Shown here: one piece after another, positions 5 through 32,470 of the stretch
How positions within the stretch are numbered: the first letter of the stretch is position 1
Layout: each line of letters starts with the position of its first letter
NCBI GenBank assembly: GCA_964549305.1
Contig: CAZJVM010000007.1
Coordinates: 3,029-67,028 of the forward strand
Reading direction: 5' to 3'
Source: an uncultured bacterium
Lineage (GTDB): Bacteria > Schekmanbacteria > GWA2-38-11 > J061
DNA: 64,000 bases
Position numbers and translations under genes: made by a program
The notes under the pieces: model-generated
Told to the model about the DNA's origin: nothing
The model's database searches: none
What the model saw: the letters and a program-made list of their open reading frames with translations, nothing else

Positions 5-532
5 TTATTTTTTCATTTTAAATGTCCACACACACCCCGTTTCTTCCCATTCAATCACAGTGGGGATACATCCCATTTCAGTAGTTGGATGACGAGGATG
101 GGTAAGGTGCATCTTTTCAATTTCACAAATTTCCCTTCCATCAAATCCCAGATTTGCAGTTTCAACAATTTCTCTCTGTTTTTTTAACCTAAGACAGTTT
201 TTAAACCTTACGGTAATCTCACCGTCCTTCGGTTCGGAAACTTCATACTCCCCCGGACCATGCATCATCTGGTCATTATAGAGCACTCTTTTGATTGCCT
301 CTTTAAGGGATTTATTGGGAGCAAGTTTTCCCACAAAGCGGGCGACAGGCCCGAGAAATCTCGGTCCCATATATCTGTACGCCTCTACAGTATCGTCAAC
401 CCATTCCTGCACCGTACCGAGACGTTTGTGTGTTTTGTAGCTTATAGCATGGTCCATAGTAAAAAAGTCATGAAGTCTGTCCCATTTCTCATCAATGGGC
501 ATTTCCTTGATGTCCGGCTTTTTCATTTCCAT
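5..532 (-). CDS. Small four-cysteine protein, ATC-hydrolase-like (PF14196-like) family, paralog 1
   Basis: 175 aa ORF. C-terminal pattern is F-x-N-C ... E-I-C ... M-G-C ... C-V-W. It is clearly paralogous to the 588..1124 ORF (shared motifs HKRLGTV-EWVDDTV, PRFLGPV, EKMHLTHP). The family name is from memory and not verified. Confidence 0.5.
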   Translation of the reverse strand: MEMKKPDIKEMPIDEKWDRLHDFFTMDHAISYKTHKRLGTVQEWVDDTVEAYRYMGPRFLGPVARFVGKLAPNKSLKEAIKRVLYNDQMMHGPGEYEVSEPKDGEITVRFKNCLRLKKQREIVETANLGFDGREICEIEKMHLTHPRHPTTEMGCIPTVIEWEETGCVWTFKMKK

Positions 533-587
533 AGAGATTTACCTCCCGTAAATATATTTAACTTATTTGTTTTCCCCAAAAACAAAG

Positions 588-1124
588 CTACACTTTTTTA
601 TATACCCATACGCATCCGTCATCTTCCCAGATTATTTCAACTGCTTTGCATCCCATATTAGATGCAGGGTGGTTAGGATGAGTAAGATGCATTTTTTCAA
701 CTTCGCAAATTTCTCTTTCATCAAAGTCATAGCCAAGAGTTTTTATCCATTTTTTATGTCTCTTGAGACGGGCGCAATGACGCCATCTAACTATTATCTG
801 GCCGTCTTTCGGTTCGGAATATTCAAACTCGGAAACATCGTGGTGCTGCTGATCAAGTTTAAAAACAGATTCGAACGTTTTCTTAAGATAAAGGTTGGGG
901 GCAAGATTGCTAACAGTTTTTACGACAGGGCCTAAAAATCTCGGGACCGAACGGTTATAAGCGGCAACGGTATCATCAACCCACTCTTTAACAGTGCCAA
1001 GTCGTTTGTGAGTGTAGTAGCTTATCATATGGTCCATTTCGAAGAAATCACAACAGCGGTCATACTTATCCTCAATGGACAACTCTTTGACATTCGCTTT
1101 GTGAGTCTTAAGTTCTTCAGACAT
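588..1124 (-). CDS. Small four-cysteine protein, ATC-hydrolase-like family, paralog 2
   Basis: 178 aa. Same motifs as the 5..532 ORF, so this is a tandem duplicate. Confidence 0.5.
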   Translation of the reverse strand: MSEELKTHKANVKELSIEDKYDRCCDFFEMDHMISYYTHKRLGTVKEWVDDTVAAYNRSVPRFLGPVVKTVSNLAPNLYLKKTFESVFKLDQQHHDVSEFEYSEPKDGQIIVRWRHCARLKRHKKWIKTLGYDFDEREICEVEKMHLTHPNHPASNMGCKAVEIIWEDDGCVWVYKKV

Positions 1125-1176
1125 AAATTCTACCTCCTTCCGGTTGAGGTTATTTACAACAGAAGAAAACCTGAAT

Positions 1177-1380
1177 CTACTCCGCAGGTGTCGCCTCTTC
1201 TCCGCTTTTTCCCGCTTTCACTATTGCCGCATTGGGACAAACCTTCACACAGGCACCGCACTCCACACAAGTTTCCTGATTTATTTTATAGGTGTCCTCA
1301 AAATCCATAATCGAGTCAGTGGGACAAATGTGCCAACAGGTACCGCATAGAATACAATCTTCTGTAATGACAAATGCCAT
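1177..1380 (-). CDS. 2x[4Fe-4S] ferredoxin
   Basis: 67 aa with two cluster motifs: C-x2-C-x2-C-x3-CP (CILCGTCWHICP) and CVECGACVKVCP. Confidence 0.85.
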   Translation of the reverse strand: MAFVITEDCILCGTCWHICPTDSIMDFEDTYKINQETCVECGACVKVCPNAAIVKAGKSGEEATPAE

Positions 1381-1404
1381 TTTTCAAATCTCCTCTTTAA
1401 AAAA

Positions 1405-2091
1405 TTACATTGCAATTCCGGTCTGAATATTTTCAAGATTTTCAACTATCAGGCCAAGCAGGTCGTAATGAATGGTGCAATAAACCTCCCCCGGGGCAAG
1501 ATTCATAAGGCAACGCGCCTGCTCATCTCCCATATTGTATGTCATTGTCTTTTTTTCAAAAACTATGGGAAAGGAATTCGTACACCACGCTGTCCCCGAC
1601 AAACCGTGTACCAATTCACCTGTCTTCCAGGTGTATGCCTTGGTAAGACGCATTACCCTGTATGCGTCAGTTACAATCATTACCATATCAGGGTCTTCCA
1701 CATCTTCCAGCGCGCCGATAACCTGATACTTGTGATGAAAAAAATGATGGGGCACCTGCTGATTTACCCGGCGGAAAACCTTGCGGTCTGCATATCCCTT
1801 TTTAACGCCTATTGTAGATGACATCCCCGCATCGAATTCCTCTTTGGATACTTTTCTGTTTCCGATTCCAGAATACAGCGCGCCTCCGCACATCACATTT
1901 TTATTTGTAATATAAAAGGGCCTTCGTCCTTCCTCCCACATTTCTGCCACAATTGCGCAGTGGAAGGAAAAATCATCGCCATAGGACTCAACATTGGCAG
2001 GAATTTCATCAAAAAGTTTAAATGCGATTATCCTTCTTTCATATCCCTCGAGCTCTTTCAGTTTTTTTGCAAGTTCAGCGTTTTTACTCAT
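1405..2091 (-). CDS. DUF169 (COG2043-like) family protein
   Basis: 228 aa. The size and pattern recalled for DUF169 match. It has a paralog immediately upstream. Assigned by eye. Confidence 0.4.
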   Translation of the reverse strand: MSKNAELAKKLKELEGYERRIIAFKLFDEIPANVESYGDDFSFHCAIVAEMWEEGRRPFYITNKNVMCGGALYSGIGNRKVSKEEFDAGMSSTIGVKKGYADRKVFRRVNQQVPHHFFHHKYQVIGALEDVEDPDMVMIVTDAYRVMRLTKAYTWKTGELVHGLSGTAWCTNSFPIVFEKKTMTYNMGDEQARCLMNLAPGEVYCTIHYDLLGLIVENLENIQTGIAM

Positions 2092-2126
2092 TTATCTTTA
2101 TTTCCTTTTTCAATATCTAAGAAAAT

Positions 2127-3122
2127 TTAACCTAACATATCATCTATATTCAGCCCAACCGATTCCATCTGCTCGGCAATGACATCGCGGGTAATCTTTT
2201 TATATCCTTTCTCTTTTGCAAATGTTTCCACCGTTTCAACGGCAAACTCCCGAATCCCGTCAGGCGAGGACATTACAAGGGACTGAGCTTCGTCATCCCA
2301 GTCCATAGTCACTTTTAAACCTGATTCAGTTTTTATCACATCAGTTTCTTTTGCCTTTTCACTTTCCTTTTTCCAGAATTTTGACCATTCGGGCTTTGTG
2401 GCGGCAAGATTTGCTCTCGTATCTATTCGCACATCAACCAAAAGACGGGGCAGGTTTTTAGCGTATTCAAGGGGAATAACCACAAAAAGTTCTTCCGGCT
2501 TAATTCTGTTGAACATCCTTCCGCCGAAATCACCGAAAGTTACCACAACATTTTTTTCGTGCCAGGGCGATGAAAAAAGCTCACCGCAAAGGGAAGTGCC
2601 GAATGAACCGTAGGGTTTTATTCCGTCGCACACTAACCGGCAACCAGCAATTGGATTTGCATTGTGAGGATTGCAGACAACGACAATCCAGTCCACATCC
2701 ACACCGTCGGGCACACAGTCAAGAGGCGCCGCGCCGATTCCCTTAACCATTCCCGGAGGAAGATTTCGCATTCCCGATTTAAGGCGTGCCGCTCCCTCAT
2801 AGGTGAAAAAACTGCTCGTTTCAGAAAGGTATTCGCCATTTATTATATCCGCCTTACCTTCAACCATACCACAGTGGTATGTCCCCACAAGGCAGTCATG
2901 ATGCGTGGAATCGAAATAGGACCTTTTCCCATCATCCATTGCAAGGCGTACGAGTGTGCAGGGTTCTCCGCTTATTGGCTCATATTCCGCCGGAATTTGC
3001 TCTCTGAAAAGACTTACGGCAACGGGGTTACCGCGCACATGCCCTTTAGTTTTCAAAATCTCTGAAATCTCTTTTAGATTGGTCATTTGATATTTTATTG
3101 AACAAATACTCCCTTTATTCAA
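2127..3122 (-). CDS. DUF169-like domain protein with about 90 aa C-terminal extension
   Basis: 331 aa. The N-terminal roughly 240 aa are paralogous in architecture to the 1405..2091 ORF, and a charged C-terminal tail follows. The true start may be the internal Met (MTNLKEISE). Confidence 0.4.
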   Translation of the reverse strand: MNKGSICSIKYQMTNLKEISEILKTKGHVRGNPVAVSLFREQIPAEYEPISGEPCTLVRLAMDDGKRSYFDSTHHDCLVGTYHCGMVEGKADIINGEYLSETSSFFTYEGAARLKSGMRNLPPGMVKGIGAAPLDCVPDGVDVDWIVVVCNPHNANPIAGCRLVCDGIKPYGSFGTSLCGELFSSPWHEKNVVVTFGDFGGRMFNRIKPEELFVVIPLEYAKNLPRLLVDVRIDTRANLAATKPEWSKFWKKESEKAKETDVIKTESGLKVTMDWDDEAQSLVMSSPDGIREFAVETVETFAKEKGYKKITRDVIAEQMESVGLNIDDMLG

Positions 3123-3302: not shown

Positions 3303-5132
3303 ATGTCAAAGCTAAGAGTGATGACTCCTTGTCTGTTGATAATAGGTCTATTTTTTGTAAATCCCGTTTTTTGGGGATGCGCGGGAAAAGAGAAAAAAGA
3401 AATTAAAGCGACGGCTGAAAAAAACGCTCATAAAAATCTTTCCGAAAAAAGTGACAGGAAGACAATACCTTCTGAAATAAAGGGACTGGACGGGTCATTG
3501 TGGAAACAGGTAAATTTAGATGGATTCGGAGAAGAGGAAAATGTGGCAATCGTTGCAATGAAGGAATTTCAGGACAAACTCTACGCCCTTGTCAGAAACG
3601 ATAAATATGGCGCCGAAGTTTGGTGCTATGACGGAGAAAAATGGACTCAGGTTTTATTTCCCGATGGCATAAAAAACGGAATCTACAACAACTTTTTCAT
3701 CAACTCCCATATGGGCACTATGGAAGTATTCAGGGAAAAGCTTTATGTGGGATTTTCTTCGGGAGTTCAGGGGTACTACCTTAAATCTTCGGGCTGTGAA
3801 ATATGGCGATATGACGGCACATCGTGGGAACCGGTCATATCGGACAAAAAGGACAGGGAAGAATCCGGAAAGATAACCGGTATTTCCGGGTGCGCAGACA
3901 ATGATTCGGAAACCACCGCTTTTTTTTCTGACGGTTCAAAAAGATGGAAAGAAAACCAATGGGCAGGCGGAGTTCTTCAGATAACCTCCGGTAAAGGCAG
4001 ATTCAGGCGTTTCGACATTCTTTCCAACACAAAGGACACGCTTACGGTTCAGCAGAATGAAATCGGCGGAAACAAGGGCAAGGAATATACGATATGCGCA
4101 AAAAAACATTATATCAATCCTTTCCCTCTTCACGAATATGACATTCTCTCTGTATCGGTAGGAGACAACTATGAAATCGGAACAGGAAGCGATGAAAACG
4201 GTTTCGGAGATTATTTCAACAAAGCCCTTGCAAGTATGATTATTTTTGACGGGAAACTTTATGCAAGCACAGTTTTGAACTACGATTACGGCGGACAAGT
4301 ATGGTACACGGAAAACGGAGATAACTGGAAGATAACAAATCCTCCGCGCAGTATGGGCCTTTTTCACAACGACCCTAAATATCCCGATTCCAAAAAACCT
4401 GTTACCAGGGGAATCCCCGGATTGGGAGTATGCGATATGGAAGGAAAACCCGTTCTTTACGCGGGCACACTGGGTTCAGACGGAAATCTCGGAGGATGCG
4501 CGCGCTTTGCGAAAATGACTCCCGGGGGGTGGAAGCTGATTGTTGACACTGATGTCGATGACAATGATACGGGAACAAACGAAAACGGTTTCGGGATTGG
4601 CCTTGAATGTAATATGTTCAACGGCAACTTCAACGTGTGGAGTCAGGCATGTTTCAAAAACAAACTTTTTGTGGGATTTCAGGCAATCGCGGGAGCGAGA
4701 GTTTTGTACACGGAAACGGGAAGCAGTGACGACGGAAGCTGGTTTTACAGCGTAGGGGGAGACGGCAAACTGCCTGCGGGGTTTGACGGAAAGACAAACA
4801 AAGGCGCATCGCTTGTAATGAAAAAACCGGTCCACGAAACAATTGCCGTTCAGCTTTTTCCATACGACGAATATCTTTATGCCGGACTGGTACGCCTCTA
4901 TATGCCTCTTATGGGCGCGGGCGCAGAAACCATAACAGGCTCCCATATATGGAAAACAAAAGACGGAATTAACTGGGAAAAGGTTACGGACAACGGTTTC
5001 GGCGACAGAACTGTTTTAAACTTTCAGGCATTCACCGTATATAAGGGCAATCTCTTTGTCGCGGGAAGCAGGGCGGCAAATACTGTAGGAGGAGGCCTCG
5101 GAGGCGCAAAGGTTTACAAACTGATGCAATAG
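3303..5132 (+). CDS. Secreted lipoprotein with beta-propeller-like repeats
   Basis: Signal peptide with a lipobox-like ...VFWGCAG. It has at least 6 repeats of the form KLY[AV]G...G...W...DG..W..V, which look like BNR/Kelch-like blades. Confidence 0.55.
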   Translation: MSKLRVMTPCLLIIGLFFVNPVFWGCAGKEKKEIKATAEKNAHKNLSEKSDRKTIPSEIKGLDGSLWKQVNLDGFGEEENVAIVAMKEFQDKLYALVRNDKYGAEVWCYDGEKWTQVLFPDGIKNGIYNNFFINSHMGTMEVFREKLYVGFSSGVQGYYLKSSGCEIWRYDGTSWEPVISDKKDREESGKITGISGCADNDSETTAFFSDGSKRWKENQWAGGVLQITSGKGRFRRFDILSNTKDTLTVQQNEIGGNKGKEYTICAKKHYINPFPLHEYDILSVSVGDNYEIGTGSDENGFGDYFNKALASMIIFDGKLYASTVLNYDYGGQVWYTENGDNWKITNPPRSMGLFHNDPKYPDSKKPVTRGIPGLGVCDMEGKPVLYAGTLGSDGNLGGCARFAKMTPGGWKLIVDTDVDDNDTGTNENGFGIGLECNMFNGNFNVWSQACFKNKLFVGFQAIAGARVLYTETGSSDDGSWFYSVGGDGKLPAGFDGKTNKGASLVMKKPVHETIAVQLFPYDEYLYAGLVRLYMPLMGAGAETITGSHIWKTKDGINWEKVTDNGFGDRTVLNFQAFTVYKGNLFVAGSRAANTVGGGLGGAKVYKLMQ

Positions 5133-5682: not shown

Positions 5683-6009
5683 TTAAATTATCAGTGTATG
5701 ATGAGTCGAAAGTTTCTTTATATTTTTCCTGTAATAGGTAAAATTCAGTACTTTACCCGCTTCCCACGAATTGTTCGTTTTTTCTCCTGAATTATCTGCT
5801 TTTCTGTTTAAAACCACATTTAAAACTCTTCTAAATTTCCTTTGGAAAACTTTCAAAATGCCGCATCCCGGAAATATTCTCAGGAGAAACGACGCGGTTT
5901 TATCTATGGCGCGCATGAGGAATAAAGAGAATTTAAATGCACTCCAGCAAAGGAAGTAAATTAACTCGATGATAAGAATCAAACCTCCCAGAATGTTTAG
6001 TAACGCCAT
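5683..6009 (-). CDS. Possible small membrane protein
   Basis: 108 aa with a hydrophobic N-terminal 35 aa. It overlaps the stop of the upstream gene by 13 nt on the same strand. It may be spurious. Confidence 0.2.
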   Translation of the reverse strand: MALLNILGGLILIIELIYFLCWSAFKFSLFLMRAIDKTASFLLRIFPGCGILKVFQRKFRRVLNVVLNRKADNSGEKTNNSWEAGKVLNFTYYRKNIKKLSTHHTLII

Positions 6010-6959
6010 CTTCTTCTCCCTGACCTTTTATTTTCTCTTGAAGAAAAAACCGTAAGATGCAAAAGCTTATTATTCAGTTCCACTCCGGAACCCAAAATAC
6101 TTTTTCCTTCTATCTGCAAATCAGTGCCTTCGCCAATGCCTTTAAAGACTGAGATCTGAGCTTTTTTAAGCTCATTGAGGGTTTGCGACAGCACTTTGCC
6201 GGCACTTTTCTTTTTGCCCGGTTTTTTCATATGCTTGTTCAGATTGTCGAGATAAACGCTTTTCATAAGCTTCGGATACATACCTTTGAACGCTTTGGGA
6301 CTCGAGCATGTTTCAAAAATCTGAAACTCGCTATTTACGATTATAAAAGCGCCTATCTGATTTCTATGCGCCTTGAAATTAGCCAGGAATTTCTCTGAAT
6401 TCAGGCGATTTTCAATAAAAGCTTCGTCAAGTGAATGAGTGGGAGAATCAACTTTAAGATCACATAATTTTAAGTTTACCATATCCCAGACCTTCCCCTG
6501 TTGGGCATATGCCTTGCCCGTTGTTCTTCTGCTCATATTCACATCTCTTACGATTTCCTTCCGAAGGTCGTTGAACGCAAAGGCATCAAAATCGGAAAAA
6601 TGTTTTTCCTCATAGGACCATCGACCTTCTTCGACACAGGACACGGGGATTTCAATCTCGCTCAGAGGTTTAATAATTATAGTTGTATTGACAACCCTGT
6701 TTTGTTTCGCCCCAACAAGCATCTCTCCCATAAAAATTACCACATACTGCTTTGAAAAATTAATCACTCTCAAAATCGGGACAGACCCTGAATCGGAAAT
6801 TTCCGACACCTTTATCAATTCCTTCTTCATCGCTTCATCGAGTGTAAGAAATGTTTCTCCCTTCTCATCTGCATAAACAGGAAAAACGGCAAAATTTTCC
6901 ACTTCTTCACAATCACCGATTACAAAGCTTTCGAGTTGCTTTACAAAATTACTTTCCAT
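5997..6959 (-). CDS. Conserved hypothetical protein (320 aa) immediately downstream of the WYL regulator
   Basis: Long ORF with good coding character and no recognisable catalytic motif. It has a Lys/Arg-rich C-terminal tail. Confidence 0.5.
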   Translation of the reverse strand: MESNFVKQLESFVIGDCEEVENFAVFPVYADEKGETFLTLDEAMKKELIKVSEISDSGSVPILRVINFSKQYVVIFMGEMLVGAKQNRVVNTTIIIKPLSEIEIPVSCVEEGRWSYEEKHFSDFDAFAFNDLRKEIVRDVNMSRRTTGKAYAQQGKVWDMVNLKLCDLKVDSPTHSLDEAFIENRLNSEKFLANFKAHRNQIGAFIIVNSEFQIFETCSSPKAFKGMYPKLMKSVYLDNLNKHMKKPGKKKSAGKVLSQTLNELKKAQISVFKGIGEGTDLQIEGKSILGSGVELNNKLLHLTVFSSRENKRSGRRRWRY

Positions 6960-7034
6960 AATATTTCCTCCTTTTCAAAACAATATAAAGGAGGCAGATG
7001 ACAGCAGTATGTCTGTGTCAGAAAAAAAACTTTT

Positions 7035-8033
7035 TTAGGAGTATTTTTTGAGGGTTTTTTGGAGTTCCGCCCTGATTTCTTTCCGCAATTCGGGAGGAGA
7101 AATAACTTCGCAGTCGGGTATCCAGGAATAAATCCAGCGCTTTATCTCTTCTGTGCCCGCCACTTTAAAAAAGAGAACTACATCACCGTTTTGCATCTGT
7201 TTTGCTTCCTGAAAGCGATGCCATTTTTTTCTTAAAATCTGATGTGCAACTTTGCAAGAAAACCTGATTTTAACCTCAACATCGTTGTCGACTACGATTT
7301 TGAAACTTTTCGAAAAATAGTCGGCAAGATTGAAATTGCGGGGAATAGCATATCTGTTATTGGTATTTTTTATTTCCTTTATTCCGTCTATGGCAAAAGT
7401 TCTCATGGCGCCCCTAAGGTCGCATTTCCCCACCATATACCAAAATCCGTCACTGTAAGTTAATCCGTAAGGAGCAACCTCTCTTTCCGTTTCTTTTTGA
7501 CTGCTGTTGGCATAATATTTAATCCATACTCTGCATTTTGAGGAAATAGCGCTATTGATTATGCTTAAAACCTTCTCGGTTTCAGGTGATTGAAGCGTAA
7601 TTCCGAGATTTACTATAATAGGAAAATTCTTATCCGATGAATTTATGCCGGCATTTTGCGCAATCCTTTCCACAACAGTAAAGAACGGGGAATCCGACGG
7701 GAAACCGAGATTTGTAACTAATTCCCGGACAGACATAAAATTGGAAAATTCATCGGGATTGAAAATTATCTTTTTCAGCGAAAACGTGCCGTCGAATGCA
7801 TAAGTTTTTTCTTCTCTGTCGTAGTATATCGGTATACCCGATTCTTCTATTGTCTGAATATATCTGCCAATGCTCCTCGTCGATTTTTCGAGAATTTCGG
7901 ATAGTTTTACGGCAGTAACCTTCTCTCCTGCGTCAATCATACTTAGAATCTTTACAATATTGATGATTTTTTCTGAAGTGCCATTTTTTGAAGAATTCTT
8001 TTTTTTGAGGCCCTTGAATTTTTTCCCGCTCAT
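7035..8033 (-). CDS. WYL-domain transcriptional regulator (HTH-WYL-WCX architecture)
   Basis: N-terminal DeoR-like HTH (KLSEILEKSTRSIGRYIQTIEESGIPI), a central WYL-like segment (YSDGFWYMVGKCDLRGAMRTFAIDGI) and a C-terminal extension. Confidence 0.7.
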   Translation of the reverse strand: MSGKKFKGLKKKNSSKNGTSEKIINIVKILSMIDAGEKVTAVKLSEILEKSTRSIGRYIQTIEESGIPIYYDREEKTYAFDGTFSLKKIIFNPDEFSNFMSVRELVTNLGFPSDSPFFTVVERIAQNAGINSSDKNFPIIVNLGITLQSPETEKVLSIINSAISSKCRVWIKYYANSSQKETEREVAPYGLTYSDGFWYMVGKCDLRGAMRTFAIDGIKEIKNTNNRYAIPRNFNLADYFSKSFKIVVDNDVEVKIRFSCKVAHQILRKKWHRFQEAKQMQNGDVVLFFKVAGTEEIKRWIYSWIPDCEVISPPELRKEIRAELQKTLKKYS

Positions 8034-9545: not shown

Positions 9546-10364
9546 ATGAGCTTCGAGAAAAAGAAAGAAATCATTGACGGTATAGCCGTGGAATTTGCCG
9601 TACCCGAAGAAGTGAAATTTCCCTCTCCCATTCTCTTTCTCCACGGCTCAAGGGGCGGAAGCTGGATATGGAATAATTTTATGGAATACCTTGCCTCCAA
9701 AGGGTGGCGTAGCTACGCTATCAATTTAAAAGGGCACCATTTAAGCGCCCCTGTGGACGACTGGAGTAAAGTAGGAGCGGATTCCTATCTTGAAGATGTA
9801 GAAAATATCGTTGAATGGATAGGCGAAGACCTCATTCTCGCCGGGCACAGCATGGGCGGAGTACTTGCGCAAAAACAGGCGGAATCAAAAAATCCTCTCA
9901 AGCTCATTCTTCTGCACACCGGTCCTCCTAAAAGAAGCGAGGAAAGAGAGGATTTCAACTCCTTTGTAAAGCAGGTCAGGGAGCAGGGGAAAATATCCGG
10001 AGAAACTGTAATCAAAATGGATGATAATCCGGAAAATCTTCTCGGCTATATGTTTGAAAAAGGGAACATTGATGATGAAACATTGAAGTACGCCCACAGC
10101 ATGCTCGGTGTCGAGTCGGCAAGGGCGCTTGGAGAAATGAAAGATATAACCGTAGACCCGGATAAGATTCAATGTCCCGTTTATCTTCTCGGATTTGACC
10201 TTGAAAAGATAGGCGTAAAATCACCCGTTGACATCAACAAGGAGCTAATCGAATTTTACAATCCCCGCGACCATAAAATAATCGAACCGGGAGGGCATAT
10301 GTTTATGCTTGAAAACAACTGGATGACATATGCACGCCTTCTTGAAATGTGGCTTCTTGACTAA
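9546..10364 (+). CDS. Alpha/beta-fold hydrolase
   Basis: Contains the HG box (LFLHGSRGG) and the nucleophile elbow GHSMGG. Confidence 0.7.
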   Translation: MSFEKKKEIIDGIAVEFAVPEEVKFPSPILFLHGSRGGSWIWNNFMEYLASKGWRSYAINLKGHHLSAPVDDWSKVGADSYLEDVENIVEWIGEDLILAGHSMGGVLAQKQAESKNPLKLILLHTGPPKRSEEREDFNSFVKQVREQGKISGETVIKMDDNPENLLGYMFEKGNIDDETLKYAHSMLGVESARALGEMKDITVDPDKIQCPVYLLGFDLEKIGVKSPVDINKELIEFYNPRDHKIIEPGGHMFMLENNWMTYARLLEMWLLD

Positions 10365-20609: not shown

Positions 20610-23336
20610 ATGATCAGAAAGTTTTTCATATTTCTTCTTTTAAGCGCTCTTCTCCTTTCTCCCTTAACTTCCGCTCTTTGCGCTGAAACTGGAAAAATCA
20701 AAGGTGTCGTCAAAGACGAACAAAATGGCGAAGCACTTCCCGGCGTGACAATAACCGTCGATGGAACAGACATAGTAACTTTTACCGATGAGAAGGGAAG
20801 TTTCGAAATAGATATTTCCGAAGGGACATATACGGTAATCGCGGAATTCTTGGGATACAGTCCTTCAAAGGCGGAAAATGTAGTTGCCTCCTCTGAAAAG
20901 GATAACATCGTAAATTTTTCCTTGAAGGAGTTTGCCGCAATCGAAGGAGATACAGTCATAGTAACGGGCGACAGGATGAACATTCCCCTTTCAAGGGCAA
21001 CTGCTTCAGTTGAAGTAGTAAATTCCAAAAAATTTGAAATGACTGCAGGCGCTGATAATGCAGGCGATATTTTGAAAAACACCCCCGGCATCCAGATGGA
21101 AAGCGTTGGAGGTCCCGGAACAAGAAAAATCATCAAAATCAGAGGTCAGGGTTCTCAAACAGACAGCAACAGGGTTCTTCTTCTGATTGATGGAATACCA
21201 GCACAATCACCAAGAGTCGGGACTGGAGAACTTTCAGATTTTCCCGTTGAAATGATAGAACGCATAGAAGTAATGAAGGGTGCGGCATCTGCTATCTATG
21301 GCGGAAGTGCACAAGCAGGCGTCATAAACATAATCACGAAAAAGGGCAGAAAAAAACCCGTTTTTAAATTCAACACAAAGGTAAGCACATATCAGCACAG
21401 AACAAACGCCAATCAGGACTGGACGCAGTATTACGGAATATTTCATAGTTGGGGGGGAGAAAACTGGAATTACACTATAAGCGGTTCATACTTGTTTTCA
21501 AAAGGATTAACATATGCTGAAACTGGAAATATCGGTATCCTGTCAGCTAAAGAAAAATTCATTAAAGTCAATTATCCGGGATTCCCCGACTTTAAACCGA
21601 AAGAGAAAGCAACAGCACCTCCATTTTTTAATCAGGACTTGAATGCGCTTGAAGATATAGGAGCTCTTGATGACAGTGAAAATTATAATGTTTCGGCATC
21701 ATTCGGGGCAACACTTTTCAAGGGAAACCATATTAATTTAGCTGTCGGTTATTCCTTCAGGAAAAATCCCCAGTCATTTGGTGTTTTTACTGTTCCAACA
21801 ATGCAGTTACAAAGCGGTGGTAAGAGAGAATACCTCAATGTCTCCGATAACTGGGAAATTACTCCTAATCTTTTATACAGTTTAAAGATCAATCTTGCAA
21901 AAATTACTGAACCTGCAGATGTTCTCTTCTTTTCAAGTGATTACCAGTCAAAAAGGAATGCAGGTTATTATAAGAGAAATGGCATTGATCCCGAAAGTGA
22001 TATAGATTTTTATAAGGGTACCGGTGTACCTATCAACCCTGCTGTATTTCGTTATTTTTCAAAAAACTGGGGCGCGGACAATTCGCTGACTTATACTTCT
22101 GATATTCTTGAACCTGAAGGCAACAATTTAACAGTGGGGCATGCCTTCAGATGGGAAAAAGTTGACCTGCCTCTCTCAAAAAATGGTGGAACCCGTATCT
22201 TTACTGAGACTCCACAGCGAAGAAAATTCAACTCTTTATACTTTCAGGATGTCCAGAAATTCGGAAAACTCAATGTTAACATAGGCGGAAGATGGGAACA
22301 GGTATCAGGTTTCGTAGATGACTGGCAAGATGAATTTTCCCCCAGATTTGCAATAAATTACGAAATCAAACCCGGAACTTCCTTCAGGGCATCAGTAGGA
22401 AGGGCATTCAGACCACCTGAATACAGTCATATCTTTTGGCTGGAAGGACAGGGCGGAACTCTCTACGGCAATCCCAATCTTGGCTATGAGGTGACATGGT
22501 CGTATGAGCTTGGTTTTAAATTCCTGACAAAATATTTAAGCGGTGACATTGCATATTTTTTCAGCAAATATTCAGACCAGGAAGTGCAGGCGCCTCTCCT
22601 TGCCACAAATCCGGAGTTTATTAACCTTAACAATCCAAAAAACGTTAAGTTTTTTAAAATTTATAAAAAAAACAGAGAAATACTTGGAGAAGATATTTCA
22701 AGGGCAGTTGAAGAAATTGTTGACTATTATATTGATAAAGGGTTTTCAACAAAAGAAGGACTAATAAGCAGTGCTCAGCGATCAGTGACATGGATTAATC
22801 GTGGAACCTCTGTCCATCAGGGTTTTGACATCAGTTTTGATATCTCCAATCCGTGGCTTCCTGAATTTGCAGTCGGAGTTAATTATCTCTTTGACAGGGC
22901 AGTGGCAGAGGGAAGGAATCCCTTTGATTTTTCACAAGGAAGCGCTCCAAAAACAATATACAGCATCAATGATTTAGGTGGAAAGAAAAGTGCCGTTCCT
23001 CTTTCACTCATTGAGCTTAACGGAAATCGCTTAATTGAAACCCCCACTCATACATTGAGAGTTAGTACAAGCTACAGATTTCCTTTCGGACTTATTGGAA
23101 CAATCAATGGAAGATTTAAAAGTACCACCTTTTTCAGAACTCCATACTCAACAAGCGGAGCTATTTCTCAACCCGAGCACTGGGTTTGGGACATCGCACT
23201 TGTCCAACCATTGTTCAAAGGCAAAATGAAAATACAATTTGCCATAGAGAATATTTTCAGCAAACTTTATTATGAAGTCGGAATGATACCGTCAAGTGTT
23301 GCAAGATATGAATTGGGATTAAGCTGGGATTTTTAA
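20610..23336 (+). CDS. TonB-dependent outer-membrane receptor with N-terminal carboxypeptidase-regulatory-like domain
   Basis: Signal peptide, a CarbD-like segment (GKIKGVVKDEQNGEALPGVTITVDGTD), TonB box/plug (DTVIVTGDRM; plug), and a barrel with terminal aromatic ...LSWDF. Confidence 0.85.
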   Translation: MIRKFFIFLLLSALLLSPLTSALCAETGKIKGVVKDEQNGEALPGVTITVDGTDIVTFTDEKGSFEIDISEGTYTVIAEFLGYSPSKAENVVASSEKDNIVNFSLKEFAAIEGDTVIVTGDRMNIPLSRATASVEVVNSKKFEMTAGADNAGDILKNTPGIQMESVGGPGTRKIIKIRGQGSQTDSNRVLLLIDGIPAQSPRVGTGELSDFPVEMIERIEVMKGAASAIYGGSAQAGVINIITKKGRKKPVFKFNTKVSTYQHRTNANQDWTQYYGIFHSWGGENWNYTISGSYLFSKGLTYAETGNIGILSAKEKFIKVNYPGFPDFKPKEKATAPPFFNQDLNALEDIGALDDSENYNVSASFGATLFKGNHINLAVGYSFRKNPQSFGVFTVPTMQLQSGGKREYLNVSDNWEITPNLLYSLKINLAKITEPADVLFFSSDYQSKRNAGYYKRNGIDPESDIDFYKGTGVPINPAVFRYFSKNWGADNSLTYTSDILEPEGNNLTVGHAFRWEKVDLPLSKNGGTRIFTETPQRRKFNSLYFQDVQKFGKLNVNIGGRWEQVSGFVDDWQDEFSPRFAINYEIKPGTSFRASVGRAFRPPEYSHIFWLEGQGGTLYGNPNLGYEVTWSYELGFKFLTKYLSGDIAYFFSKYSDQEVQAPLLATNPEFINLNNPKNVKFFKIYKKNREILGEDISRAVEEIVDYYIDKGFSTKEGLISSAQRSVTWINRGTSVHQGFDISFDISNPWLPEFAVGVNYLFDRAVAEGRNPFDFSQGSAPKTIYSINDLGGKKSAVPLSLIELNGNRLIETPTHTLRVSTSYRFPFGLIGTINGRFKSTTFFRTPYSTSGAISQPEHWVWDIALVQPLFKGKMKIQFAIENIFSKLYYEVGMIPSSVARYELGLSWDF

Positions 23337-23450
23337 ATTTTTTTTCATTGCGGCTCTTATTTTTTTTCGATATGCAAATCCCTTCAAATTTAATATAATG
23401 TGTATTTGTTTTTTACGCTTTACCCTTATAACATTTTACAGAGAGGAACT

Positions 23451-26177
23451 ATGATCAGAAAGTTTTTCGTATTTCTTCTTTTAAGCGCTCTTCTCCTTTC
23501 CCCCTTAACTTCCGCTCTTTGCGCTGAAACCGGGAAAATCAAAGGTATCGTCAAAGACGAACAAAGCGGCGAAGCGCTTCCCGGCGTTACAATAACCGTC
23601 GATGGCACAGACATAGTAACTTTTACCGATGAGAAGGGAAGTTTCGAAATAGATATTTCCGAAGGGACATATACGGTAATCGCGGAATTCTTGGGATACA
23701 GTCCTTCAAAGGCGGAAAATGTAGTTGCCTCCTCTGAAAAGGATAACATCGTAAATTTTTCCTTGAAGGAGTTTGCGGCAATCGAGGGGGAAGAAGTCAT
23801 CGTGACAGGCGACAGAATGAACATCCCTATTTCAAGGGCAACAGCATCTGTAGAAGTTGTGAACTCCAAAAAATTTGAAGTTACCGCGGGCGCAGACAAT
23901 GCGGGAGATATCCTGAAAAACACGCCCGGAGTGCAGATGGAAAGCGTTGGAGGACCAGGCACAAGAAAAATCATTAAAATCCGCGGACAGGGTTCACAGG
24001 TTAACAGCAATCGTGTACTGCTTCTAATTGACGGTATACCGGCACAATCTCCAAGAGTCGGTACAGGTGAGCTTTCGGATTTTCCCGTTGAAATGATTGA
24101 GCGTATTGAAGTTATGAAGGGCGCCGCGTCTGCCATATACGGCGGAAGCGCTCAGGCAGGCGTCATAAACATAATCACGAAAAAGGGGAGAAAAAAACCT
24201 GTCTTTAAATTTAACACAAAGGTGAGCACATATCAGCACAGGACAAACGCCAATCAGGACTGGTCTCAATACTACGGTATATTTCACAGTTGGGGGGGAG
24301 AAAATTGGAATTATACCATAAGCGGTTCATACCTCTTTTCAAAGGGTCTGACTTATGCCGAAAAGGGAAATATCGCTGTTTTTCCTGCAAAAGGAAATTT
24401 TATTTCAGTTAATCACCCCGGATTCCCCGGGTTTAACCCGAAAGAAAAAGCAACGGCACCGCCATTTTTCAATCAGGACATGAATGTTTTACAAGATACC
24501 GGAGATCTCGATGACAGCGAAAATTACAATGTAAATGCATCATTCGGCGCAAAACTTTTTAAAGGAAATCGTTTCAATTTATCAGTTGGCTATTCCTTCA
24601 GAAAAAATCCACAGTCCTTCGGTGTTTTGACTGTGCCTACAATACAATTACAAAGCGGAGGGAAAAGAGATTATATTAATTTCTCAGATAACTGGGAAAT
24701 AACGCCCGACCTCTCATACAGTTTTAAGCTCAATCTCGCAAAAATCACGGAAAACGCGGATCTCGTTTTCTTTTCAAGCGATTATGTTTCTAAAAGAAAT
24801 GCCGGATACTATAAAAGAAATAACATAGACCCATGGACAGATGTTGATTTCTATAAAGGTACGGGCATCCCGGGAAATGTTGCGCCCTTTCATTATTTTG
24901 CCAAAAACTGGAATATGGACAACTCTATAACCTTTACTTCTGACATTTTGGAACCTGATGGAAACGGTCTTACTATTGGAGAATCATTCAGGTGGGAAAA
25001 GGTTGATTTGCCTCCTTCAAAAAACGGAGGAAATCTGATTTTTACCGAAACACCACAACATAGAAAATTCACTTCTCTTTATTTTCAGGATGTTCAGAAA
25101 TTCGGAAAACTTAATGTCAACATAGGCGGGAGATGGGAGCAGATAACGGGTTTTATTGATGATTGGGACGACGAGTTTTCACCAAGAGTTGCCATAAATT
25201 ACGAAATCAAACCGGGCACTTCCATAAGGGCGTCTGTGGGAAGGGCATTCAGACCGCCTGAATATTCACACATATATTGGTTTAAGGGGCAGGGAGGCAA
25301 TCTTTATGGCAACCCCAATCTCGGTTATGAAATCACCTGGTCCTATGAACTCGGATTCAAGTTTCTCACAAAATATCTGAGCGGCGACATTGCGTATTTT
25401 TACAGCAAATACTCAGATCAGGAAGTGTCGGTCCCCCTTCTCGCCGTAAATCCTAACTTTATCAATCTTAACAATCCCAAAAATGTTAAATTTTTTAAAA
25501 TTTATAAACAAAACAGGGAAATACTTGGAGAAGGAATAGCGAAATCCGTTGAAGAAGTTATTGATTATTACATTAGCAATGGCTTTATTAATAAAGAAGA
25601 GCTTATCAATGAAGCCCAGAGGTCAGTTACGTGGATTAACAGGGGGACATCAGTACATCAGGGTTTTGATGTAAGTTTTGATATTTCAAATCCGTGGTTG
25701 CCCGAGTTCGCAATCGGAATAAATTACCTCTTTGACAGAGCAGTGGCAGAAGGCAGAAACCCTTTCGATTTTTCTCAGGGAGACGCACCAAGCCCGGTTT
25801 TAGGCATTAACAGCTTGGGAGGAAAAAAATCTCCTATCCCACTATCACTTCTTGAACTTAATGGAAATCGACTTGTTGAAGTACCAACCCATAATTTCCG
25901 GGTACGGACAAGTTATAGATTTCCTTTTGGCCTAATGGCAACAATTAACGGCAGGTTTAAAAGCACAAGCCGCTTTAAATCCAATTACTCGGCAAGTGGC
26001 GCAATTCCTCAACCGGAACACTGGATTTGGGATTTGGCTCTTGTGCAGCCACTTTTTAATGGAAAAATGAAGGTCAAGTTTGCAATAGAAAACATCTTCA
26101 GCAAACTCTATTATGAAGTGGGAATGATACCGTCAAGCGTCGCAAGGTATGAATTGGGATTGAGTTGGGAGTTTTAA
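23451..26177 (+). CDS. TonB-dependent outer-membrane receptor, tandem paralog
   Basis: Same architecture as the first receptor. The start was taken at MIRKFF by analogy to its paralog (the ORF track extends to 23400). It ends ...LSWEF. Confidence 0.85.
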   Translation: MIRKFFVFLLLSALLLSPLTSALCAETGKIKGIVKDEQSGEALPGVTITVDGTDIVTFTDEKGSFEIDISEGTYTVIAEFLGYSPSKAENVVASSEKDNIVNFSLKEFAAIEGEEVIVTGDRMNIPISRATASVEVVNSKKFEVTAGADNAGDILKNTPGVQMESVGGPGTRKIIKIRGQGSQVNSNRVLLLIDGIPAQSPRVGTGELSDFPVEMIERIEVMKGAASAIYGGSAQAGVINIITKKGRKKPVFKFNTKVSTYQHRTNANQDWSQYYGIFHSWGGENWNYTISGSYLFSKGLTYAEKGNIAVFPAKGNFISVNHPGFPGFNPKEKATAPPFFNQDMNVLQDTGDLDDSENYNVNASFGAKLFKGNRFNLSVGYSFRKNPQSFGVLTVPTIQLQSGGKRDYINFSDNWEITPDLSYSFKLNLAKITENADLVFFSSDYVSKRNAGYYKRNNIDPWTDVDFYKGTGIPGNVAPFHYFAKNWNMDNSITFTSDILEPDGNGLTIGESFRWEKVDLPPSKNGGNLIFTETPQHRKFTSLYFQDVQKFGKLNVNIGGRWEQITGFIDDWDDEFSPRVAINYEIKPGTSIRASVGRAFRPPEYSHIYWFKGQGGNLYGNPNLGYEITWSYELGFKFLTKYLSGDIAYFYSKYSDQEVSVPLLAVNPNFINLNNPKNVKFFKIYKQNREILGEGIAKSVEEVIDYYISNGFINKEELINEAQRSVTWINRGTSVHQGFDVSFDISNPWLPEFAIGINYLFDRAVAEGRNPFDFSQGDAPSPVLGINSLGGKKSPIPLSLLELNGNRLVEVPTHNFRVRTSYRFPFGLMATINGRFKSTSRFKSNYSASGAIPQPEHWIWDLALVQPLFNGKMKVKFAIENIFSKLYYEVGMIPSSVARYELGLSWEF

Positions 26178-26963: not shown

Positions 26964-27158
26964 TCATGCTGTTACCTCTGAAATAGCTTTATGTTGGCAT
27001 ACTTCACAACATACAAGACATCCTGTACAAAGGTTTTCAAGCCATACAACCGCTTCATCTCCTAAACGCAGAGCGTTATAGTCACACATATCAATGCAGC
27101 TTAAACAGGCCACACATATTTGTCTGTCAATTTTTATAATTGTTTTTCCGGAATTCAT
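26964..27158 (-). CDS. Ferredoxin-like protein (FixX-like), 2 Cys clusters
   Basis: 64 aa with CVACLSCIDMC and CTGCLVCCEVC. Its start overlaps the stop of the upstream flavoprotein gene by 4 nt. Confidence 0.7.
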   Translation of the reverse strand: MNSGKTIIKIDRQICVACLSCIDMCDYNALRLGDEAVVWLENLCTGCLVCCEVCQHKAISEVTA

Positions 27159-28519
27159 TTTTGAAATTCTTCTCCCCGCTTTAAAATCATGGAAACGAGC
27201 AACCTTACCTTTTGAGATTTTATTTCTGACGATTTCACAGAAAGAAGAGTCTTATACATATTTTTTATATACTCATTGGGCGTTCCAAACATATCATCAC
27301 TACCTTTAAGATGATCAATAACAATTTCTTCATTGAATATTCCAAAAAGTTCATTCAGATCTTCTTCATCAAGTGAATGCATAAATGTTGAAAAATCGAC
27401 CTGTTTCCTTGCATTCTTCACATACTTACCCCACCACTTATTATATCTCTCGATGGCATCCTTTGCTCCGTCACAACCCAGTATCTTTTCTATAGTTTCA
27501 GCCGCCCGGGCTGCGATTGCCATTGCGCCTGCCCACTGGGTTTCTATTGTAAATGCCGTATCGCCGAGGAAACTCATCCCTTCCAGAGCAAAAGGTTCTG
27601 CAATAGGAGAATCAACGGGAAGATAACAGCAAAACCTTTTGTAGGGGCATGCCTTACTAAATGCCTCTGCGCATGCATCATGATTATTCAGGAAATTGAG
27701 GAAATTTTTAAGGAAATCCACTGGGTTATCTGAGGAATTGTTTTTCGTATCATGGTCATTAATATCTGTAATAGTGTACATCTCCCCTTCACCAAGGTAT
27801 GCGGCCAGAGCAAGGGCATTTGGACCTGAAAATTTTCTGTTAAGATACATATTATGAAACGTGGGGTCAAAAAGTTCACTTCTGGACGTAAGGGATATAT
27901 CAAAATCCTTAAATTTCAGGCCTGCAATCCTTTTGGATCCCCAGTGTTTCTTCACAATTCCGGCAAGCCGCGAAATTTTCGATCTTATGCCGTCTGCGGC
28001 CACAACATGGTCAGCCTTAATTTTCAAATGAGAATTTCCTGCATTTTCAGCCAATAATCCAGTTACACGATTTTTTTTCTTTATGAGGCCGACAATCTCA
28101 AATCCGTAAAATAAAGCTGTGCCGGCTTCCCTTGCCTCTTTTTCAAGCTTCTCTACCCAATAACGGTAATCGATGCGATAATTAGTCGGAGAAATAGAAC
28201 GGAGGCGCAGATTCTGCTTGCCGGGAGAATATGTTGCAAACCCGTATATTTCATTTTTAATGCTGTGCTTTTCAAGCGTGAACCCGCTTTCGAGGAAATA
28301 AATGCCGTTGTCATTTATACTTACCCTGTTTGGCTGGAGAGAAAGCATCTCCATTATGCCAGGATTAATAAAGGTTGGCGAAGGCTTCCGGTCAACGACT
28401 GCTACCTTAAATCCTTTCCCGGATAACTTCTTTGCTGCCATTAATCCGCATGGCCCTGCACCTGCAATCGCTATATCAAATGATTTTTCTGTCATAATAC
28501 TAAATTCCTCATTTTCCAT
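27155..28519 (-). CDS. FAD-dependent oxidoreductase, geranylgeranyl-reductase/FixC-like family
   Basis: Rossmann dinucleotide motif DIAIAGAGPCG and a GD..G-like region. It has a roughly 100 aa C-terminal extension. The true start is possibly the internal MTEKSF. Confidence 0.75.
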   Translation of the reverse strand: MENEEFSIMTEKSFDIAIAGAGPCGLMAAKKLSGKGFKVAVVDRKPSPTFINPGIMEMLSLQPNRVSINDNGIYFLESGFTLEKHSIKNEIYGFATYSPGKQNLRLRSISPTNYRIDYRYWVEKLEKEAREAGTALFYGFEIVGLIKKKNRVTGLLAENAGNSHLKIKADHVVAADGIRSKISRLAGIVKKHWGSKRIAGLKFKDFDISLTSRSELFDPTFHNMYLNRKFSGPNALALAAYLGEGEMYTITDINDHDTKNNSSDNPVDFLKNFLNFLNNHDACAEAFSKACPYKRFCCYLPVDSPIAEPFALEGMSFLGDTAFTIETQWAGAMAIAARAAETIEKILGCDGAKDAIERYNKWWGKYVKNARKQVDFSTFMHSLDEEDLNELFGIFNEEIVIDHLKGSDDMFGTPNEYIKNMYKTLLSVKSSEIKSQKVRLLVSMILKRGEEFQK

Positions 28520-28585
28520 ACACCGTCGGAATTTTCAAAACCTTGTTTTTTTTCAATACACATAATTAATAAATGAACTTTGAAA

Positions 28586-29074
28586 TTATTTTATAGGACT
28601 AATCCTAAAAGTGCATTTTTCAGCACCTGCCGCAATTCTTGAAATGATTGTCATCTTACAGCCAATCTTCTCAACCTGTTTTGCTTCCCGTTCGCAGAGA
28701 TATTTACACACTTCTTTTTCAAGCCCGTATTGCCCTGCTACATCCAATGGAGGACAATTCAAAAAAGAGAGTTGGAGCTCGTTTTCTGTTTCAGAATCTC
28801 TTTCTACACAGAAACCTAACATCCTGTCAGGCACACCTATATTTTGTTTTAAATCTGCAAATTTTAACTTCATTTTCATGTTGCTTGCCGTTTGATGAAA
28901 CATACATTCCCTGATAGACCAATAAAGCTCTTTTCCTTTTTCCCCTAATTGTTCTGTCAAAACCTTATAAGCAGCAGCATCTCTGCTGAAAACAGCTTTT
29001 CTTAAAAATTCTATCTGTCTGTCGAGAGGGATTTCATTGTCGATAATGACATGATTGTTTTCTATTCCTGTCAT
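28586..29074 (-). CDS. Small four-cysteine protein, ATC-hydrolase-like family (third member in window)
   Basis: 162 aa. Its C-terminal pattern F-L-N-C ... E-V-C-K-Y-L-C ... I-G-C ... K-C-T-F is parallel to the 5..532 and 588..1124 ORFs. Confidence 0.45.
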   Translation of the reverse strand: MTGIENNHVIIDNEIPLDRQIEFLRKAVFSRDAAAYKVLTEQLGEKGKELYWSIRECMFHQTASNMKMKLKFADLKQNIGVPDRMLGFCVERDSETENELQLSFLNCPPLDVAGQYGLEKEVCKYLCEREAKQVEKIGCKMTIISRIAAGAEKCTFRISPIK

Positions 29075-29142
29075 AACTTACCTCCTTGAATATGATTATT
29101 ATCTTTTATTGCTATAAATTTTTTCATGCGTTTCTTTCATTC

Positions 29143-29907: not shown

Positions 29908-29980
29908 TTTGTTTGCCTTTTTTTGTCATAAGACTCCTGTCAAAAACTATACTGTTGTAAAAAAATGTTTCAGCAATCTC

Positions 29981-30508: not shown

Positions 30509-30637
30509 AATTTTTCTCCTTTTTAATTGATAAGATAAATGCTATTTGATGATTACAAAGAATATCTTAGTGCTGAGCATGTCCTCGCTTTCGCATTCTC
30601 CATCACGATCTATGACATTTTTTTTCATCAGTTCAGA

Positions 30638-30880: not shown

Positions 30881-30892
30881 AACATTCCCTCC

Positions 30893-32356: not shown

Positions 32357-32470
32357 AACACCACCCTCCGCTTGACAAATAGAGAAAAGGCATCTATAGT
32401 TAGTATCTAAGAGCAAATTGTTTTATTAACTATTACCTTTACAAACATATAGTATTAGGAGAACTAATAA

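Follow-up and report, generated by a model that had tools for sequence, protein, structure and literature searches.

Which enzyme system is encoded by five closely spaced genes at one end of a Schekmanbacteria contig, and what do the small cysteine-containing proteins encoded beside its ferredoxin do? The genes occupy positions 5-3122 of a 64,000-nucleotide stretch (the window) of contig CAZJVM010000007.1 from an uncultured bacterium of this lineage. A preliminary description, made from the sequence alone, took them for a genuine uncharacterised ferredoxin-linked operon, which is borne out. The explanation that we favour is a ferredoxin-dependent oxidoreductase with its own substrate-handling proteins, and as a whole it is given a probability of about 0.4. 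The observations beneath it are the operon, its conservation, the modelled folds, the conserved cysteines and the gene associations. The five genes, with one domain of the first, are as follows.

2127-3122, minus strand: DUF169L, the long DUF169 subunit, a 331-aa open reading frame (ORF) with a TTG start (PF02596, E 2.9e-26)
2175-2300, minus strand: PCP_red-like C-terminal domain of DUF169L (aa 275-316), resembling the BchB/ChlB C-terminus
1405-2091, minus strand: DUF169S, the short DUF169 subunit, 228 aa (PF02596, E 3.8e-26)
1177-1380, minus strand: 2x[4Fe-4S] ferredoxin, 67 aa (Fer4, E 8.9e-16; NCBIfam FdxA_fam, 69.7 bits with a cutoff of 65)
588-1124, minus strand: small protein of the '178-type' clade, 178 aa (Cys117, Cys140 and Cys171 conserved, Cys159 not)
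5-532, minus strand: small protein of the '175-type' clade, 175 aa (Cys113, Cys136 and Cys167 conserved, Cys155 not)

All five minus-strand ORFs are present as first described, with intergenic gaps of 24-55 nt, and they constitute a single transcription unit. A Joint Genome Institute contig (L123) is identical to the window across the overlap and extends 491 nt beyond its left edge. Just beyond window position 1, at 10145-10254 of that contig, there is a strong intrinsic-terminator hairpin (ΔG -22.7 kcal/mol, z -5.1), and the hairpin and its U-run are located about 25 nt after the stop codon of the last operon gene (5-532). Past the terminator, outside the window and 3' of the operon, lies a conserved short-chain dehydrogenase gene. 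As the last ORF is followed by a terminator hairpin and then by a separate gene, the operon is real and bounded. It is also conserved in sediment bacteria: a Candidatus Schekmanbacteria assembly (L019) has the identical gene order, with a last operon protein 93% identical to that of the window, and the order is kept in the deltaproteobacterial loci L015 and L022. Divergent from the operon, at 3303-5132 on the plus strand, is a gene whose 609-aa product carries a lipoprotein-like signal peptide and matches no Pfam model; the gene keeps this position in the Schekmanbacteria assembly.

Both large proteins belong to DUF169, as had been proposed (PF02596, E 3e-26 and 4e-26 in round figures). DUF169L and DUF169S score 93.0 and 92.7 bits with a gathering score of 27 bits, cover profile positions 2-204 and 1-209 of 209, and are only 19% identical to each other. 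At least 370 homologs of DUF169L, of approximately 320-326 aa, were found; their alignments begin at residue 13, and the true start is therefore probably Met13 (ATG at 3084-3086), giving a protein of 319 aa. The invariant residues of DUF169L are Cys55, Cys77 and Cys179 (in 67 long sequences) together with His74 and His83, and the equivalent cysteines of the short subunit (Cys45, Cys68 and Cys170) are invariant in 48 short sequences. A GD...R motif is common to the two paralogs and invariant in both sets. The ferredoxin has two CxxCxxCxxxCP motifs, with C9, C12, C15, C19 and C38, C41, C44, C48 as ligands, confirming its assignment as a 2x[4Fe-4S] protein. The tail of DUF169L resembles the C-terminal domain of BchB (NCBIfam, 8.4e-7; PF08369, 25.0 bits, E 1.9e-5, with a Pfam cutoff of 32.5 bits), the DUF169L family profile matches the isolated PCP_red domain in PDB 2KRU with E 0.005, and PF08369 is precomputed on many DUF169L homologs. 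Widespread in archaea and bacteria, the DUF169 family (COG2043) has neither an assigned function nor a solved structure. Sequence searches gave no solved relative of the DUF169 domain, the PCP_red tail alone being matched (2KRU), and the literature search found no functional work on DUF169 or COG2043, these names and PCP_red being mentioned incidentally only.

Metagenomic loci were collected with DUF169L (80 loci, 58 of them informative for neighbour counts); many come from related samples, so that the counts overstate independence. DUF169S adjoins DUF169L in 51 of the 58 informative loci, and the ferredoxin comes next in 46. The close relationship between ferredoxin and DUF169 is seen also in a fusion (L065:6435-7313, minus strand) with Fer4 at residues 3-53 and DUF169 at residues 71-279, encoded near a DUF169L/S triad, and similar ORFs with an N-terminal 2x[4Fe-4S] domain followed by DUF169 are located near the triads of L037 (10638-11561, minus strand) and L063 (6563-7432, minus strand). 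The ferredoxin-fused form is a third type of DUF169 protein. Loci with at least 4 kb of sequence downstream were divided into a close clade, in which DUF169L is at least 61% identical to that of the window (n=15), and a distant clade with at most 57% identity (n=24), and partners were counted within 6 kb.

Short-chain dehydrogenase: 14/15 in the close clade, 1/24 in the distant clade
Small protein: 8/15 in the close clade, 0/24 in the distant clade
Membrane protein of about 255 aa with about six transmembrane segments: 7/15 in the close clade, 1/24 in the distant clade

On these counts (8/15 against 0/24 for the small proteins) the conserved core consists of DUF169L, DUF169S and the ferredoxin, and the small proteins, the dehydrogenase and the membrane protein are clade-specific accessories. 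Genes for PNPOx-like proteins, geranylgeranyl-reductase-like flavoproteins and methyltransferases are found now and then in close-clade loci. MMPL/sterol-sensing-type transporters and sulfatases recur as neighbours of the triad, joined in L015 by a molybdenum hydroxylase, and some triads are flanked by a sigma-54 activator or by PAS-LuxR regulators. The membrane protein (L040:10779-11546 and homologs) has no Pfam match and is encoded between the dehydrogenase and a 178-type small protein in several loci. An ORF joining it to a small protein (L037:9119-10525) is probably a read-through artefact, the junction of about 60 aa being Arg-rich and of low complexity, but it still revealed the 255-aa partner to be a polytopic membrane protein. 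A radical SAM gene beside distant triads was considered as a DUF169 partner and rejected, as it is instead the activase of a neighbouring glycyl-radical enzyme on the opposite strand. The latter, an 818-aa PFL-like protein, is encoded with its radical-SAM activase directly after the distant DUF169 triads of L073, L076, L086 and L088.

It is more likely than not that DUF169L and DUF169S form a heteromeric oxidoreductase reduced by the dedicated ferredoxin. The two subunits would make up the catalytic heteromer, with the BchB-C-terminal-like tail as a 'lid' on the long one, and the co-encoded ferredoxin would supply the pair with low-potential electrons. The three cysteines of each subunit may hold a cofactor or act in catalysis. 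A rigid three-gene unit with its own ferredoxin, with fusions and with three invariant cysteines per subunit makes a testable reductase candidate.

The two small proteins are tandem paralogs with 55% identity (E 2e-73), as had been recognised, but the Pfam family proposed for all three small proteins of the window, PF14196, holds for the third (28586-29074) and not for the tandem pair, which has no Pfam or NCBIfam match at E<=0.1. The V4R Pfam model (PF02830) matches neither the three window proteins at E<=0.1 nor members of the family at E<=1, and no solved-structure relative of either small family was found by sequence. When 21 diverse members of the tandem family were scanned at E<=1, the Pfam families matched by more than one member were DUF2378 (0.0016) and PF14196 (0.035), each weakly and in two members. 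The family is rare, with 79 proteins in an index of 5.8 billion, all named 'hypothetical', and 46 clusters in an exhaustive profile search of 1.84 billion (1.84e9) representatives. A pattern-seeded scan of 185,579 species genomes gave at least 20 loci, all in Desulfobacterota/'delta' lineages or Chloroflexota, a count that is a lower bound because the scan was seeded with the shallower alignment A1.

The family splits into the 175-type and 178-type clades, which beside DUF169 are mostly found in tandem (the window, L019 and L015; L047 has a second 178-type copy). Other contexts vary. Five loci (L001-3, L021, L039) have a geranylgeranyl-reductase-like flavoprotein directly upstream of a 175-type protein and dehydrogenases downstream, and in L007-11, L029, L031 and L034 a weak thioredoxin-like [2Fe-2S] protein is followed by a 178-type singleton and a 297-aa protein without assignment. 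A gene of the bilin-reductase family, fused to a ferredoxin, adjoins the small-protein gene in L035; another is located 5 kb away in L036, and in L042 one is beside or near small-protein or triad genes. Chloroflexota loci without DUF169 carry genes for a HAD-type hydrolase and for an unassigned protein of 342 aa; in one further DUF169-free context the small-protein gene is found among BTAD/AAA regulators. The 255-, 297- and 342-aa neighbours were compared with bilin reductases as possible divergent members and rejected, with hhalign probabilities of at most 1.2%.

The preliminary description gave the small proteins four conserved C-terminal cysteines. All three window proteins do carry the pattern as written (588-1124 having H-C instead of N-C), but only three of the cysteines are conserved in homologs. 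C113, C136 and C167 of 5-532 are invariant in 30 relatives and mostly kept in distant members. The 'G-C' cysteine (C155), by contrast, is replaced by I, V or F in almost every relative, distant ones included, and so drops out as the fourth. In the family of the third protein C107, C123 and C154 are invariant, and the 'G-C' cysteine is present in 7/8 sequences. A close clade of the tandem family also has an invariant His and an invariant Glu. The cysteine spacing is C-x22-C-x30-C for the tandem pair, C-x15-C-x30-C for the third protein and C-x25-C-x7-C for canonical V4R, and the distance from the second to the last conserved cysteine is 31 residues in both small families. A cluster of three conserved cysteines is common to V4R, ATC hydrolase and MetOD1, to which HNOB is also related (Galperin et al., PMC5847659). 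C151, E172, C177 and C185 of DmpR coordinate a structural zinc next to the hydrophobic pocket for phenol (PMC7264223), and MsvR owes its redox sensitivity to the three cysteines of its V4R domain (PMC3729527). The three cysteines are most simply read as a structural metal site, to which we would give an even chance; they may instead form an Fe-S (iron-sulfur) or redox-switch site.

The AlphaFold2 model of 5-532 has a pLDDT (predicted local distance difference test) of 89 and a pTM (predicted template modelling score) of 0.81, and its best Foldseek matches in the PDB are TRAPPC3/Bet3 (probability 0.89-0.93), followed by many H-NOX domains. The model of the third protein matches the V4R sensor domains of DmpR, MopR and PoxR, then Bet3, H-NOX and the V4R protein MJ1460; it has the secondary-structure order of 5-532 with cysteines at equivalent positions. 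The models thus suggest that the small proteins share the V4R/H-NOX/Bet3 alpha/beta fold, with N-terminal helices followed by beta-beta-alpha-alpha-beta-beta, and the tandem pair would be a rare, unannotated branch of this superfamily and not a member of PF14196. Domains of this fold bind ligands (phenol in the sensors, palmitate in Bet3 and heme in H-NOX), and a substrate-binding or carrier role is therefore favoured over electron transfer. The redox or metal-binding role assigned earlier is accordingly retained in part: a metal-binding cysteine cluster is plausible, but the ligand-binding fold speaks for a carrier.

The third small protein is encoded 24 kb away in a cluster of seven minus-strand genes (26964-32416), with a PadR-type regulator divergent at 32471-32995.

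26964-27158, minus strand: small ferredoxin (Fer4, E 2e-8), which together with the following flavoprotein is directly downstream of the third small protein
27155-28519, minus strand: geranylgeranyl-reductase-like flavoprotein (FAD_binding_3, 3e-14; GG-red-SF, 1.4e-15, below cutoff)
28586-29074, minus strand: third small protein, 162 aa (PF14196, E 1.3e-11, 45.9 bits with a gathering score of 28.1)
29143-29907, minus strand: bilin-reductase-family protein (PF05996, 1.2e-37; PebA-type relatives in the PDB, 1e-27)
29981-30508, minus strand: PNPOx-like protein (PNPOx_N, 1e-6)
30638-30880, minus strand: ferredoxin
30893-32416, minus strand: second geranylgeranyl-reductase-like flavoprotein

The third protein is flanked by the bilin-reductase-like gene and the flavoprotein/ferredoxin pair. 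All three copies had been placed next to ferredoxins, which is true of the tandem pair, but the third is one gene away from a ferredoxin on one side and two genes away on the other. All seven of its homologs are also PF14196 proteins (8/8 of the subfamily including the window copy), and most weakly match MetOD1. PF14196 is named after a characterised hydrolase, and the statement that none of these families has a known function was therefore too broad. BLASTP gave no significant match between the third protein and the tandem pair, and hhalign of its family with the shallow A1 profile of the tandem family gave 2.3% probability; with the diverse A3 profile the result was E 2.3e-4 and 44% probability over 130 collinear columns. 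Three copies of a single family, as originally supposed, thus become three remote relatives in one ligand-binding superfamily: the kinship stands at the level of fold class and profile comparison, and not as one Pfam family. The preliminary observation as such is real and goes beyond chance.

Homologs of second-cluster proteins (PNPOx-like protein, flavoprotein, flavoprotein/ferredoxin pair) adjoin DUF169 triads in L043, L045, L048, L056 and L057, and in the last a homolog of the 507-aa flavoprotein with its ferredoxin is beside the triad (E 7e-242). This neighbourhood makes a functional link between the two regions of the window plausible. In a related cluster without a bilin-reductase gene (L018) the PF14196 homolog adjoins a geranylgeranyl-reductase-like flavoprotein, and the gene context of a third PF14196 relative (L124) was uninformative.

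Several features around this cluster were recorded in addition. The bilin-reductase-like protein 29143-29907 is closest to the PebA type (PDB 6qwq, 1e-27; 2x9o, 7e-20; NCBIfam PebA, 7.6e-36, below cutoff) and may be relevant to the 'pre-PebA' enzymes being sought (PMC13446030). A second gene of the family (36945-37670, minus strand; PF05996, 2.7e-33) is located 7 kb from the first and is followed by an MFS transporter and a 715-aa sulfatase (35711-36850 and 33434-35581). In L040 and L049 a long sulfatase of the same type is encoded upstream of the DUF169 triad. A tandem pair of TonB-dependent receptors, each with an N-terminal CarboxypepD_reg domain (20610-26177, plus strand), is convergent with the end of the bilin-reductase cluster. 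Closer to the operon, an ARPP-1 domain protein (5997-8033, minus strand; PF20208, 2.4e-77) adjoins a WYL/WCX/HTH regulator, and the pair is also present in L123.

Put together, the preferred explanation of a ferredoxin-dependent oxidoreductase with its own substrate-handling proteins would work as follows. The small paralogs, as a divergent branch of the superfamily without a Pfam model, would have kept the three-cysteine site, probably with structural zinc, and the pair would bind and present, or sequester, a hydrophobic substrate for the DUF169 reductase, comparable to BchJ. That the V4R-like pair binds and presents such a substrate is a tentative proposal by analogy, somewhat short of even odds. 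The downstream short-chain dehydrogenase would catalyse a neighbouring step, and the PF14196 protein 28586-29074 may have the same role for the adjoining geranylgeranyl-reductase-like flavoprotein/ferredoxin pair. The conditional parts are the heteromer, the electron flow, the carrier role, the identity of the metal and the class of substrate. The substrate would most likely be conjugated and lipophilic, and possibly derived from a tetrapyrrole. A tetrapyrrole is suggested by the PCP_red tail, by the bilin-reductase-family genes (two in the window, others in L035, L036 and L042) and by the PNPOx-like protein; the transporters of MMPL/sterol-sensing type, the sulfatases and the molybdenum hydroxylase point equally to lipids or steroid-like compounds, and we regard a tetrapyrrole-derived substrate as doubtful. 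An improbable further step would make the triad a new class of ferredoxin-dependent reductase for tetrapyrrole-derived pigments (breakdown products of chlorophyll, heme or bilins) in anaerobic sediment heterotrophs, with the lid covering the substrate, a V4R-like heterodimer delivering it, and the Schekmanbacteria bilin-reductase-like proteins, the PNPOx-like protein and the geranylgeranyl-reductase-like flavoproteins completing an anoxic pathway of pigment saturation or catabolism.

A number of points weigh against the explanation as a whole. Linkage to bilin reductases is occasional: three fetched loci show it, and it is missing from all 80 loci collected with DUF169L. The small family also occurs in quite different contexts that contain no DUF169. 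Its cysteine spacing departs from that of canonical V4R domains, and no conserved acidic or His fourth ligand was identified across the distant tandem-family members. The structural matches of the small-protein models are weak (Foldseek E ~0.03-0.04, TM scores of 0.37-0.48), and the model of the third protein is of low confidence, with pLDDT 64. The PCP_red match is below the Pfam cutoff, many of the fetched loci are not independent, and the two window clusters are separated by 24 kb with unrelated genes between.

The distance between the clusters is also the starting point of the alternative that survives best, although it is unlikely: that the tandem pair and the third copy, and both clusters, are functionally unconnected, the superfamily simply being common in the genome, and that the DUF169 substrate is not a tetrapyrrole but an isoprenoid, a steroid-like compound or a sulfated lipid. 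The remote sequence relationship of the small proteins agrees with it, as do the MMPL/sterol-sensing-type transporters, the sulfatases and the L015 molybdenum hydroxylase that recur near the triad. It is opposed by the homologs that the PNPOx-like protein, the geranylgeranyl-reductase-like flavoprotein and the 507-aa flavoprotein/ferredoxin pair of the second cluster have next to triads elsewhere, and by the pairing of both small-protein types with the same type of flavoprotein.

A direct redox function, as advanced in the preliminary description, would make the small proteins metal (Fe-S) proteins that transfer electrons between the ferredoxins and the partner enzymes. It is favoured by the three invariant cysteines, with the invariant His and Glu of the close clade; an Fe-S protein is nearly always near (the 2x[4Fe-4S] ferredoxin, the [2Fe-2S] thioredoxin-like protein or the L035 fusion of ferredoxin and bilin reductase), and the redox-sensitive V4R cysteines of MsvR offer a precedent (PMC3729527). 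However, the fourth cysteine is not conserved, the homologous three-cysteine site of DmpR holds structural zinc (PMC7264223), and the fold is of a ligand-binding class. The small proteins are moreover absent from all 24 distant-clade triads and from 7/15 close-clade loci; being absent from most DUF169-ferredoxin loci, they are not an obligatory redox component, and the triad works without them. This function is accordingly judged improbable.

It is likewise not to be expected that the small proteins are stand-alone sensors of a metabolite or of redox state that regulate the activity or expression of neighbouring enzymes. Phenol sensor domains and H-NOX gas sensors are among the closest solved folds, one gene context lies between BTAD/AAA-type regulators, and sigma-54 activators or PAS-LuxR regulators stand by some triads, but the operon of the window has no signalling partner, the small-protein genes are co-transcribed with tight spacing inside an enzyme operon, and tandem pairs of the two clades recur with enzymes (flavoprotein, DUF169, dehydrogenase) and not with kinases or DNA-binding domains. 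Activity as ATC-hydrolase-type enzymes cleaving ring C-S or C-N bonds of a heterocyclic intermediate is very improbable, as already supposed from the start: the third protein is a bona fide PF14196 member, the namesake of the family hydrolyses a thiazoline ring (cited in PMC5847659) and the tandem family is remotely related to it, but the pair itself fails the PF14196 model, its setting of reductases and ferredoxins includes no sulfur or cysteine metabolism in the window or in related loci, and the catalytic residues of the hydrolase are undefined, so that conservation of the activity is unsupported.

With the ferredoxin-dependent oxidoreductase as the preferred explanation, its parts can be set beside known systems. 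The tandem family shares with PF14196 the secondary-structure order, equivalent cysteines and the spacing of 31 residues from the second to the last conserved cysteine, but the pair falls below any reportable threshold and is found with reductases and ferredoxins, not with cysteine or thiazoline metabolism. A protein annotated as ATC hydrolase (tolI) is listed with an FAD-binding protein (tolJ) in the gene cluster of the tetrapyrrole tolyporphin (PMC8401325). Bet3/TRAPPC3 and H-NOX, the best solved matches of the 5-532 model, are likewise ligand-binding alpha/beta domains, Bet3 with covalent palmitate in 6aq3 and H-NOX with heme. They differ in being a eukaryotic or Asgard vesicle-tethering subunit and a heme gas sensor, the likeness reaches TM scores of 0.37-0.48 only, and an equivalent of the heme-ligating His motif or of the palmitoylated cysteine is not established here. 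The V4R domains of DmpR, MopR and PoxR (PMC7264223) match the model of the third protein best and are of the same fold class as the tandem pair, with the three-cysteine cluster in common. Theirs are N-terminal domains of sigma-54 activators, whereas the proteins described here stand alone, with a cysteine spacing of x22/x30 instead of x25/x7 and no mapped counterpart of the Glu ligand.

Chlorophyll biosynthesis offers two parallels. The likeness of DUF169L to BchB/ChlB comprises its last ~50 residues (PCP_red, PDB 2KRU); the remainder is DUF169 and not a nitrogenase-like fold, and no ATP-dependent reductase component is encoded here. For the V4R protein BchJ a carrier or scaffold role has been proposed, by which it would enhance the chlorophyllide and protochlorophyllide reductases (PMC4432870). 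Like the tandem pair, it is a small accessory protein of this fold class found with ferredoxin-dependent reductases, and its supposed role is that of a substrate carrier, scaffold or chaperone. It has no detectable sequence similarity to the pair, its partners are nitrogenase-like reductases and not DUF169 proteins, and its own mechanism is unproven.

In heterotrophs the bilin-reductase clusters encode, besides an Fe-S protein, a pair of V4R proteins that belong to different clades (Rockwell et al. 2023, PMC10151467). These pre-PcyA clusters and the cyanobacterial genes slr0144-slr0149 resemble the operon in having two V4R-fold paralogs of two clades encoded with an Fe-S protein, of unknown function in both cases, and bilin-reductase-family genes are present in the same genome here and directly adjacent in some loci (L035). 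The differences are that the small proteins described here fail PF02830, that their Fe-S partner is a 2x[4Fe-4S] ferredoxin and that the DUF169 pair is absent from those clusters. The bilin-reductase-like genes of the window lie 26 and 34 kb from the tandem pair, and both window clusters lack a bilin-associated globin and a canonical heme oxygenase. A pre-PcyA/BBAG cluster combines a bilin reductase, an Fe-S protein, two V4R proteins and such a globin, with or without heme oxygenase, so that neither window cluster would be classed as one. Bilin-reductase-like sequences of Schekmanbacteria have been placed outside the pre-PcyA lineages, with the RCCR-side outgroup (Rockwell et al. 2023, PMC10151467).

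The superfamily and its cysteine cluster are thus already known, as is its tendency to occur with Fe-S proteins and reductases; new is a tandem family without a Pfam or NCBIfam model that is attached to a conserved, uncharacterised enzyme core. Bilin-reductase clusters are central to current ideas on the origin of phycobilin biosynthesis. If the substrate were derived from a tetrapyrrole, the operon would give a view on anaerobic pigment turnover in sediments, and if the triad were a pigment reductase, DUF169 and the module of an Fe-S protein with two V4R proteins would gain their first functions. The small pair with its Fe-S proteins and reductases mirrors that unexplained module, and a function found for the one could carry over to the other.

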